From a virus (lineage: Duplodnaviria; Heunggongvirae; Uroviricota; Caudoviricetes), in IMG/VR virus record IMGVR_UViG_2609460354_000009: DNA of 4,376 nt. The stretch is one strand, 5' to 3'. Shown here one piece after another: positions 1-3,000 of the stretch. Positions within the stretch are counted from its first letter, which is position 1. Every line of letters begins with the position of its first letter. The position numbers are program-made.

Positions 1-3000
1 CTGGCTGAAGTACGGGCGCAGGGCGTGGATACAGCTATCGAGCACCTGCATAAGAAGTTTAAAGGAACTGTGCTTGTTGGCGTCCCGGTAATGGCGTTGG
101 AGTATTTAGCCGCAGAGCTTCGCAAAGGAGGCAACCAGTGAGCGAAATTAATTACCAGGCACTGCGTGAGGCAGCAGAACGTGCAATTCCAGCAATGGAA
201 CGCCTGTTAATGTTGCCAACTGATGATGATTTGTTAAGTGAACAGGAACTTAAAGATTACGGTGTGGATATTGATGCGCTCAATGCCTTCAAATTTCTGA
301 CCGGACCAGAAACCGTGCTGGCACTACTGGATGAACGGGAAAGGAACCAGCAATACATCAAACGCCGCGACCAGGAGAACGAGGATATTGCGCTAACGGT
401 AGGGAAGCTGAGAGTTGAGCTTGAGGAAGTAAAACAACACGCTGAAGAATTATCCGAAACCAAGGCTGTTCGTAACCAATGGCGGCCAGATATTTGCCCA
501 ATAACCGGACGTGCATTTTTCATGTGGATTGAGCATCCAACATTGGGGAATGTGCCGACATATGGTGGCCCATTAGATAGTTACACCATTCCAACAAAGG
601 ACGGTGACGGTGAGTTTTCATGTGAGCGTTACGATCATGATTTTGGCGGTTGGGTAGAAAGCGAATGTCTTGGGTTATATCTGATTGATGATAGAGAACA
701 ATGCAGGGTCTACGAACTGGAGGAACGCGTTAAGGAACTGGATGCTCGGGAAATATCGCTCCCGGAACGTAGCAGCATGCTTCATCGAACAGATTTTCAC
801 GATGATTACCAAACGGTAATGGCATACAAAGTTTCTGAAGTCATCGCTGCAATCCGCGCCGCTGGCATTCGCATCAAAGGAGAGTGAGATGAACGCTATA
901 ACCAAAGAACGTATCAAATTATTCATTAAAAATCCGCTTGATAACGGACTTACTCGTGGCGAACAAATGGAACTGGCACGAATTGCTCTGGCATCGCTGG
1001 AAGCAGAGGCAGTTATGTTCTGTATATCAGGACAAAATGTAGATTCAGAAGAACATGTATCAACCAGCAAAGCGGTTGTTGATGCCTGGGTTGAAGAATG
1101 GAATCAGGTTGACGGAAGTCCTGGCGAACCACTGTACAAAACTATGCCACTCTACTATCACGCTGCCTTGCCAGCGCCGGTAGTGCCGGATGAAATGTAT
1201 TGGCAGGATGCGCCAGTTGAAGGCAGCAGCAAAGCGGCTGCATACGCTACAGGCTGGAACGCCTGCCGCGCCGCTATGCTTCATGGGAAAGGAGAGTGAT
1301 ATGGCAACTTTAACAAAAAAAGAACGGGCATGGTTGAACGAATTACAGGACGTTCTTGATCGCTGCCCATCACCGAAAAAAATTGGTTTTTACACCATTG
1401 GCGATAAAAGCATTTACCTGTATGACCTGCGCCGCATGGATGAAATCATGGAGGCTCTTGATAATCGTTCGTCAATGGATTGGTGTGTTGCTGTCCATGA
1501 TATGAATGCAGGGTTTGATGAAAAGATTTTGTTCCCCTCATCAGTTGAAAGCACTGCGGGTTAAGGAGTAACACATGACCACTATTACCAAAGAACGTAT
1601 TGAATTGTTCATTAAAAATCCGCTTGAAAACGGGCTTACCCGTGGTGAACAAATGGAACTGGCACGGATTGCGCTGGCATCGCTGGAAGCAGATCCAGTT
1701 AAACGAGTTAACTCAGATCAGATGCGCCGAGTCTGCTTAGAAGCTAATCGCCATTTAGATAAATATGACGCGATGGCGAAAGAGGTAAATAAGTTGCTTG
1801 GACGCATCGCCCCGCCAGCGCCGGTAGTGCCGGAAGAAGCAACTCCGGAAAACGTAGAAATGCTCTCTGGCTATGTTTCCACGTACAAATTAACCGATAG
1901 CGAGCGCGATATTGCTGCCGAAATATGGAACGCCTGCCGCGCCGCCATGCTTCAGTCCGGAAACTTTCGGGAAAACAAGAATTCGTCAACCAATAATTTT
2001 CGGGAAATCGCGGAAACGTCAACCAACTATCCGGCAATTCCTAGTGAGGTGTTGTCCGCAATCCTGAAGGTTGCCAGGATTCGTGCCGATTTCGATGATT
2101 TTGACGGTGACAGGCGAGGTATCGGTGATTGTCTGGATGAGGCTGAGCAAGAGCTTATCGTTACCATTAACAAATATGCCAGTCAGTTGGCAGCAGAACC
2201 TATAGCGCCTAATGACGTTCGAGAGCAGACAGCCATTCCACAAGTTCCGGTAACTCCGGATGGTTGGATAAGCTGTAGTGAGCGAATGCCGGACGACAGG
2301 CAGGAGGTGAATCAATGAGCTGGCCTGATGCAATCGTAACTCTGGGGGTGGTATTCGCAGCAGCGTTTGTTGTGTTCTCGATTTGTCGATGGGGATAACC
2401 ACATGTTCGCTTTGATTCAACGCGGTCAGATATACACGGACAGAGCTGGATACCCCGTGGTGATTACTCGCATCACTGAGCGCTCAGTGTTCTTTCGACG
2501 GATGGACGGACGATCCGGGCGGGTACGCATTGGTGAGTTAAACTGCCTGTTCGAACATATTGACCACCAGGAGTACCGCAAAATTCTCGCGGACACTGAG
2601 CAGGAAAAGCACCTGAAAAAATTACGAGCCATAAAAAGGAAGTAAAGAATGAATAAAGCATTTGAACGATGGGTCCACCAGCGTTACGGCAATCGCTATG
2701 ACCTGACGCGAGATGTTGACGGCTTCTACTGTCGTGAAGTTGTGAAGCGAATGTTTGAAGTGTGGTGCCACTGCCGTGGATGAAAATTTTATGAGGTTGG
2801 CATGCAGACAATCATCTATCAGATAACCCCCAGCAAATGGTGTACGGAGAGAGTCCTCATTGCATCAACAGGGCTAAAGCCTGGCACCATTGAGCGGGCA
2901 AGAAGAAAGTCATGGATGCAGGGAAAAGAATACCGCCATTACGCTGTAGAAGGTGATCCGGGGCACTACAGTGAATGCCTGTACAACATCGAAGAAATTA

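Follow-up and report, generated by a model that had tools for sequence, protein, structure and literature searches.

We analyzed a stretch of 4,376 nucleotides (hereafter, the window) from the Caudoviricetes record IMGVR_UViG_2609460354_000009, and specifically the run of small genes that fills its first half and leads into a constant downstream context (2403-4376) (Table 1). The plus strand holds every sizeable open reading frame (ORF) with a match to a known family, and the ORFs are tightly packed, with stops and starts that overlap or adjoin. Gene order and the related loci together place positions 1-2318 in a lambdoid Escherichia coli prophage, at the integrase-proximal end of its early-left accessory region (‘exo-xis’ or ea): the same-strand run ends in excisionase and integrase genes, and in related loci repressor and RecT or Erf genes lie upstream and mlrA lies downstream. 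This array is a set of translationally coupled, same-strand small acidic genes (isoelectric points of 4.6-4.8 for genes 1, 2 and 4) built of interchangeable cassettes. The original prediction, made from the sequence alone, had seen here three consecutive genes of the Ea22 family assembled from shared blocks at an active site of cassette shuffling. The analysis presented herein supports the shuffling, corrects the gene count, as the 87-codon gene 3 (1301-1564) sits between the second and the third of those genes, and restricts the family to one of them.

Table 1. Coordinates of the genes, joints and other features of the window.
Feature	Position	Strand	Remarks
Upstream Ea22-like gene, 3' end, 46 codons	1-141	+	Cut by the window start; stop overlaps the GTG start of gene 1
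Gene 1, Ead/Ea22-like, 249 aa	138-887	+	PF13935
Intergenic joint, copy 1	876-891	+	Last gene 1 codons (KGE), ribosome-binding site, stop, gene 2 start
Gene 2, modular protein, 136 aa	889-1299	+	Without Pfam domain
J1 (IALASLEA)	986-1014 (gene 2); 1672-1700 (gene 4)	+	End of N-module
J2 (PAPVVP[D/E])	1171-1190 (gene 2); 1815-1834 (gene 4)	+	20/20 identical
J3 (WNACRAAML)	1255-1283 (gene 2); 1926-1954 (gene 4)	+	28/29 identical
Intergenic joint, copy 2 (AAAGGAGAGTGATATG)	1288-1303	+	Gene 2/gene 3 boundary
Gene 3, 87 aa	1301-1564	+	phrog_1714
Gene 4, paralog of gene 2, 247 aa	1575-2318	+	‘Eaa’ or ‘DUF551 domain-containing’ in public records
Deletion joint, DUF551 core removed in frame	2292-2318	+	Residual QEVNQ-stop carries the ribosome-binding site of the next ORF
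27-codon ORF	2315-2398	+	ORF scan
DUF4222 gene	2403-2645	+	Pfam and PHROG matches
44-codon (44-aa) gene	2649-2783	+	Part of the constant downstream context
Excisionase (DUF1233)	2802-3056	+	Pfam/PHROG
Tyrosine integrase with arm-binding domain	3090-4376	+	Pfam/PHROG

Genes 2 and 4 resemble each other in blocks. An independent repeat search returned the same three pairs that had been predicted, and the counts were reproduced exactly: 112 of 126 nt are identical between 889-1014 and 1575-1700, 20 of 20 between 1171-1190 and 1815-1834 (a pair that extends to 30 nt at 90% identity), and 28 of 29 between 1255-1283 and 1926-1954. Both ORFs (889-1299 and 1575-2318) have the three blocks in the same order and in frame, and by our own arithmetic the chance expectation of an exact 20-mer repeat in 4.4 kb is about 1e-5. 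At the protein level gene 4 matches gene 2 with an E-value of 2e-28 (BLASTP), identity being confined to the blocks. The segments between blocks are unrelated, as had been claimed, and global nucleotide alignments of 1015-1170 with 1701-1814 and of 1191-1254 with 1835-1925 score at the level of shuffled sequences (z = 0.3 and z = -0.6, respectively). Of the two spacings that had been given, the second (64 against 91 nt) is right, whereas the first measures 156 against 114 nt and not 160 against 118, the difference of 42 nt being unaffected. The 5' block contains 14 differences, eight synonymous, as counted before, and six nonsynonymous; the ratio of nonsynonymous to synonymous rates (dN/dS, Nei-Gojobori) is 0.205, and such a value of about 0.2 supports purifying selection on this block, in agreement with the idea of maintained modules.

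The sharing of the 3' block by gene 1 and gene 2, also part of the original prediction, stands at the nucleotide level (30 of 46 nt, 846-891 against 1258-1303) but not at the protein level, where the match is not significant (E 0.55). The resemblance consists of two exact sub-blocks, CCGCGCCGCT and AAAGGAGAGTGA, plus ATG, and the second sub-block comprises a ribosome-binding site, a stop codon and the next start. It is through this overlap of ribosome site, stop and start that the genes of the array are translationally coupled.

The repeated blocks are short conserved in-frame joints between swappable cassettes. In the plan followed by this family, an MTTITKE... start and a variable N core lead to joint J1 (IALASLEA), a first variable segment (V1), J2 (PAPVVPE) and a second variable segment (V2), and the 3' half continues with J3 (WNACRAAML), a variable C-module, J4 (TPDGWISCSERMP), a variable DUF551 core and J5 (HWMPLPEPPQE). 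Gene 2 has an N-module (889-1014), V1 (1015-1170), J2, V2 (1191-1254), J3 and a short KGE end; gene 4 has an N-module (1575-1700), V1 (1701-1814), J2, V2 (1835-1925), J3, a C-module (1955-2246), the start of DUF551 (J4, 2247-2291) and the deletion joint with the stop. IALASLEA is invariant or nearly so in 12 different N-modules. The 101 proteins that could be segmented represent 31 combinations, with 7, 4, 5 and 12 types at the four positions; across J1, and likewise across J2, all four combinations of two alleles occur, and the cassettes thus assort independently. The cassettes of gene 2 recur at 96-100% identity behind other N-termini and ahead of other C-termini.

Several relatives are chimeras. 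In the protein P0148, gene 2 supplies the 5' part and gene 4 the 3' part, with the seam exactly at WNACRAAML; this is the product expected of unequal exchange within such an array. P0157 is composed of an Ea22 N-domain, V1 of gene 2, V2 of gene 4 and an HGKGE end; P0183 combines an Ea22 N-domain and V1 of gene 2 with a third kind of C-end; and P0245 follows gene 1 up to ...IRAA and then continues as MLRGAE... into DUF551. Proteins that begin as gene 2 also run into DUF551 (P0122-P0124 and P0129), the first three being 97-99% identical to gene 2 over amino acids (aa) 1-131 or 1-133.

Gene 1 bears out the expectation of an Ea22-family protein at this locus: it scores 102.7 bits (E 3.1e-29) with PF13935 (Ead_Ea22), whose gathering cut-off is 27, and aa 2-108 align with positions 1-121 of the 139 of the profile. 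Its product is acidic (isoelectric point 4.6), the exact protein occurs in 622 database blocks and in several prophage contexts, and the gene is itself mosaic: its N-terminal cassette (138 to about 311) is followed by a conserved LLDERE/coiled-coil segment (about 312-424), and 425-887 make up the C-terminal part. The extension of the family to genes 2 and 4 does not hold: neither matches Ead_Ea22 even at E ≤ 10, their BLASTP matches to gene 1 have E-values of 0.19 at best (gene 2) and about 10 (gene 4), and no PHROG family is common to gene 1 and genes 2 or 4. The N-module of genes 2 and 4 was also considered as a remote homolog of the Ea22 N-domain, a candidate rejected after hhalign comparison of 12 N-modules with 10 Ea22 N-domains gave a probability of 0.2% and one aligned column.

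Genes 2 and 4 are members of another modular family; its longer proteins have DUF551 at their end, and its public labels are ‘Eaa protein’ or ‘DUF551 domain-containing protein’. Pfam has no model that covers the part common to both genes (the N-module and the joints). Gene 2 has no Pfam match, DUF551 included, and matches the PHROG families 5117, 60, 660 and 3323; at least 1000 contigs encode an identical protein, which also recurs in 5272 database blocks. Because P0157, P0183 and P0245 join parts of both families, it is fair to speak of the Ea22 and ‘Eaa’/DUF551 genes as one mosaic network, not as one family. The two are distinct by domain content, yet they trade parts through common joints.

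The breakpoints against other prophages lie where these joints would place them. The locus L004 matches window positions 315-891 at 99.1% and 1255-4376 at 99.9%, with two other genes in place of 892-1254; its borders are the intergenic joint on the left (888-891) and the first base of J3 on the right (1255), before which the sequences are unrelated. L010 matches 312-1700 at 98.6% and is unrelated after J1, so that the gene 1 segment from 312 or 315 to 891 is 98.6-99.1% identical to L010 and L004. L005 matches 1-424 at 97.9% and is unrelated past the conserved Ea22 coil. The chromosomal locus L023 (315-2239 at 98.8%) and L024, on a plasmid of about 95 kb with phd/doc (319-2239 at 98.5%), both diverge just ahead of J4. 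Every breakpoint thus falls at a joint (888-891, 1255, about 1700 and 2239) or in the conserved Ea22 segment, the breakpoints at about 315-330 and about 424 being the edges of its coil. In L004, J2-V2-J3 (window 1808-1954) recurs at 98% in a 135-aa gene at the position of gene 2, and which cassettes the paralogs of an array have in common can therefore differ from phage to phage. Taken together, short islands of identity are flanked on both sides by unrelated sequence and coincide with the points of exchange.

Three parental types suffice to build the window, namely L005 for 1-424 (97.9%), L023 or L024 for 315-2239 (98.5-98.8%) and L004 for 1255-4376 (99.9%). The arrangement itself is rare. 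Among 5,426 complete E. coli genomes, not one has 80% or more of the window at a single place, and only three have genes 2, 3 and 4 together, although 2,992 match some part of that segment. In genomes with matches to the window, the median number of matching places is two and the highest 11. The genes are thus not inherited as one unvarying unit, and related prophages carry many different combinations. Exact copies of gene 1, gene 3 and neighbours also occur in the nin region of other prophages, between replication genes and the Q antiterminator (L017:5379-8424), and on the phd/doc plasmid of about 95 kb (L024:1093-4645); the circulation of the cassettes is therefore not confined to one region of the genome or one type of element.

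A further joint lies between genes. The 16-mer AAAGGAGAGTGANATG, a unit of stop, ribosome site and start, occurs 78 times in 55 of the 146 loci that were fetched, its copy at 876-891 being AAAGGAGAGTGAGATG, and it connects at least nine kinds of gene end with at least 12 kinds of gene start. Between two copies there is no gene in L005 and L022, one gene in the window and two in L004, and in L005, L006 and L022 the Ea22 gene is joined through this 16-mer straight to gene 3, without gene 2. Gene 3 matches phrog_1714 over its full length (E 9.6e-51) and is found beside different neighbours in L002, L004, L005, L010, L017 and L022; it is a constant anchor between variable genes. In the closest relatives at the mlrA site the slot of gene 2 is filled by a 171-aa gene and the 135-aa paralog (L004:4806-5321). 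The 171-aa protein has no Pfam match, and we make no claim from a possible D...E-x-K-like, nuclease-like motif noticed by eye.

The conservation of the joints reaches the nucleotide level. Viral contigs were scanned for WNACRAAML with all synonymous positions left free in the pattern, which gave 115 usable occurrences of J3, of which 61 were an identical 26-mer. Among 104 distinct sequences, the free synonymous positions carry the same base in 80-94%; the codon usage of the window, in which GCC is used for 18% of alanines and CGC for 25% of arginines, predicts far lower conservation. In ungapped register the frequency of the most common base is about 0.3-0.45 in the flanks against 0.8-1.0 inside the joint, and conservation falls near random within about 10 nt on each side. 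These flanks comprise 54 upstream and 65 downstream types in 87 combinations, with four four-gamete quartets. Similarly, 17 of 32 copies of J2 and 29 of 34 copies of J4 in the fetched viral loci are an identical 20-mer.

Gene 4 illustrates the loss of a cassette. Its match to DUF551 (PF04448) exceeds the cut-off (23.8 bits against 22), yet only profile positions 1-16 of 68 are present, and the C-terminal domain of about 68 positions is incomplete. Relatives that are 98-100% identical over 97-99% of its length have 291-308 aa and a full DUF551 end (P0003 and P0044 among them). Gene 4 tracks the full-length locus L145 up to ...GACAGGCAGGA and resumes at the second GCAGGAGGTGAA just ahead of the stop, the missing segment lying between two GCAGGA(A/G)GT repeats and leaving ...RMPDDRQEV-NQ-stop (compared with L145:2977-3175). 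The same truncated end occurs behind several upstream cassettes (P0057, P0066, P0073 and P0148), and the exact gene 4 protein in 190 database blocks. Gene 4 has thus lost the DUF551 core through an in-frame deletion, and the truncated allele is widespread.

Two further observations concern these genes. The C-module of gene 4 contains, at 1962-2026, an imperfect 33-nt tandem duplication (32-nt copies, 78% identical), which encodes NFRENKNSSTN and NFREIAETSTN in a predicted disordered region. RefSeq describes the equivalents of genes 2 and 4 in L023 and L024 (3498-4645 in both) as pseudogenes, ‘incomplete; partial in the middle of a contig’, a label that likely arises because the mosaic proteins are shorter than the reference proteins.

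Breakpoints at joints, chimeras and the independent assortment of cassettes all argue for a site of cassette shuffling, and we estimate at roughly 0.8 the probability that homologous recombination at the joints made the array of the window. Such recombination would take place between co-resident or co-infecting (pro)phages, by crossover in islands of identity of 10-30 nt, and whole cassettes would be exchanged, inserted or deleted with the reading frame kept; phage Rad52-like recombinases, which tolerate short or diverged homology, would probably help. The window would then be one product, with the Ea22 N-terminal cassette from type one, 315-2239 from type two, and the stretch from gene 3 to the integrase from type three. 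The cassettes and breakpoints are read directly from the alignments, and the enzymology of the exchange is inferred; Erf or RecT genes lie upstream in related loci, and substrates for recombination are abundant. Several considerations weigh against this explanation. The exchange is deduced from comparing sequences, no event having been directly observed, and breakpoints can be located only where homology exists, which biases them towards conserved blocks. The copies of a joint are not independent, so the 80-94% conservation at synonymous positions is a description and not a formal test, and the analyzed sets are top matches or pattern-selected loci rather than an unbiased population. Besides, the joints double as protein motifs at helix ends or in a linker, and selection on the protein could explain part of their conservation.

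This last point leads to an alternative in which illegitimate recombination at random positions is followed by selection, the blocks being kept because the protein needs them. Joints at predicted helix ends or in an unstructured linker are plausible domain boundaries, imperfect microhomology of no more than about 8-9 nt served for the deletion of the DUF551 core of gene 4, and most phage mosaic boundaries are described as lacking conserved sequences (PMC3029335). What such a process leaves unexplained is the identity of the joints at synonymous sites well above local codon usage, the occurrence of the same joint sequence between dozens of unrelated flanks, and the conservation of the intergenic joint as DNA across unrelated neighbour genes; moreover, lambdoid mosaics are, experimentally, mainly homology-driven and promoted by phage Rad52-like recombinases (PMC3945230). 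As a full account we consider it unlikely, although the two models are not exclusive and the illegitimate route is a possible contributor. Much less probable still is a simple tandem duplication followed by divergence or decay, in which the blocks would be the last similarity left between genes 2 and 4. The paralogs do lie in one array with the same module order, and RefSeq flags some copies in L023 and L024 as ‘incomplete’, but the divergence is all-or-none (blocks 89-100% identical, cores at shuffle level), the 5' block has a dN/dS of 0.2, the cores recur elsewhere at 96-100% identity in other combinations, and the exact proteins are as widespread as given above for gene 2 (at least 1000 contigs) and gene 4 (190 database blocks). 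Finally, conserved short repeats flanking variable segments in a phage accessory region, with a tyrosine recombinase gene nearby, might recall a dedicated device diversifying one genome from within, such as a diversity-generating retroelement or a shufflon-type inversion. We find this hardly credible, as the window proteins have no match to reverse-transcriptase families, the repeats are direct, with no notable inverted repeats in 138-2318, and the recombinase, which has an arm-binding domain and lies beside an excisionase, is an integrase of the usual prophage kind. The variation, too, consists of discrete unrelated cassettes common to several genomes and not of adenine-targeted substitutions.

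Homologous recombination at the joints also agrees with what is known of lambdoid phages. Published examples of boundary sequences in these phages lie mostly at gene boundaries, whereas several of the joints described here are in-frame stretches within genes and serve as protein motifs too. Recombination at boundary ‘linker’ sequences is an old lambdoid proposal (Susskind & Botstein 1978; Clark et al. 2001, on HK620; both as cited in PMC3029335), and here too islands of identity between unrelated segments coincide with exchange points. The RecA-independent, homology-driven phage-prophage mosaics attributed to relaxed Rad52-like recombination (Red-beta, RecT, Erf) by De Paepe et al. 2014 (PMC3945230) fit our observations, but no recombinase gene of that kind lies inside the window. 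The Ea22 proteins of lambda and of Shiga toxin (Stx) phages are tetramers with variable, acidic C-terminal domains (PMC7093339, PMC10834534), and a nuclear magnetic resonance paper of 2024 described variants, there called V1-V3, as mosaics with a common N-terminus and coil and dissimilar C-terminal domains, one of them with DUF551 (PMC10834534). Gene 1 likewise has the Ead_Ea22 N-terminal and coiled-coil signature, is acidic, lies ahead of xis and int, and varies between phages in its N- and C-terminal parts, while the signature is absent from genes 2 and 4; no chain in a PDB sequence search matches gene 1, and the solved lambda Ea22 C-terminal domain is no exception. Another protein with DUF551 is YfdS of CPS-53 (PMC10834534). 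Compared with the ‘Eaa’ proteins, among which the closest relatives of gene 4 (291-308 aa) and some relatives of gene 2 have a full DUF551, gene 4 keeps only 16 of its 68 positions and gene 2 stops soon after WNACRAAML, without the domain.

The surroundings of the array are those of a prophage. Loci with a 99-99.9% identical integrase adjoin mlrA, yohO and yehW in E. coli chromosomes, and those with near-identical copies adjoin mlrA (yehV) (L001-L004); judging from these relatives, the prophage would be integrated at mlrA/yehV, the attachment site itself not being seen in the window. Repressor genes lie upstream in the integrase-matching loci, as RecT or Erf genes do in related loci. The integrase DNA (3090-4376) is 94.5-95.4% identical to that of the Stx-converting phages VT1-Sakai, BP-4795 and YYZ-2008. 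On the other side, the tail of a partial gene shows that the array runs leftwards beyond the window start; this tail matches phrog_492 (E 3.5e-10) and phrog_368 (E 2.3e-4), the latter also matched by gene 1, and it resembles the ...LRKGGNQ-stop end of a 228-aa ‘ead/Ea22-like’ protein in L002. This partial Ea22-like gene, gene 3 and the truncated DUF551 of gene 4 are features that the original prediction had not described. The 27-codon ORF after gene 4 would encode a hydrophobic peptide (MSWPDAIVTLGVVFAAAFVVFSICRWG); its ATG overlaps the stop of gene 4 (ATGA) and lies downstream of a GGAGG site, and it has no family match and is missing from the gene calls of the public contigs examined. On the other strand, the long ORFs at 675-1070 and 2019-2420 were taken as shadows of the coding strand. 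No Rfam family was found in the window, neither promoter-like sites (5 against 6.1 ± 2.2 in shuffles) nor terminator-like sites (8 against 4.3 ± 2.1) are clearly enriched, and the composition profile has no discontinuity at cassette borders.

As to function, Ea22 favours lysogeny (PMC7093339), and by analogy with its lambda and Stx-phage counterparts gene 1 may bias the phage towards that state. Genes 2 and 4, again by analogy, probably encode non-essential interaction proteins with the specificity in the variable cassettes. AlphaFold2 models of both consist of helices joined by low-confidence linkers (mean predicted local distance difference test, pLDDT, of 54.2 for gene 2 and 44.5 for gene 4), and in these low-confidence models J2 falls in coil or linker, with J1 and J3 at helix ends. 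In the PDB, profile searches found no match for gene 2 and one chance-level match for gene 4 (E 0.055), NCBIfam has no name for genes 1-4, and PADLOC found no defence-system match among the proteins of 138-2783 at E ≤ 0.1.

Boundary-sequence recombination in phages is textbook knowledge and the mosaicism of Ea22, its DUF551 variant included, was already described in 2024 (PMC10834534), so our results reveal no new mechanism or new function. What is specific here is a rare recombinant arrangement together with a list of in-frame joints that tie Ea22 and ‘Eaa’/DUF551 genes into one exchange network. It offers a clean case, at nucleotide resolution, of temperate-phage accessory genes rebuilt from cassettes, in which joints, parental types and chimeras can be named. 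For annotation this is of use, given that in RefSeq these mosaic genes go under labels as different as ‘Eaa’, ‘DUF551 domain-containing’, ‘ead/Ea22-like’, ‘hypothetical’ and ‘incomplete pseudogene’. It is useful, too, for studies of the exo-xis region in Stx prophages and their lambdoid relatives, in which Ea22 affects the decision between lysis and lysogeny. A bolder idea, which we put forward tentatively and think is probably not correct as a whole, is that the joints are kept at the nucleotide level as recombination adapters, and that the Ea22/‘Eaa’/DUF551 genes form a population-wide combinatorial cassette system that lambdoid prophages, in their exo-xis as well as their nin regions, share with phage-like plasmids of about 95 kb. 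If this were true, temperate phages could quickly recombine their specificity modules, for instance against targets in the host or in rival phages.

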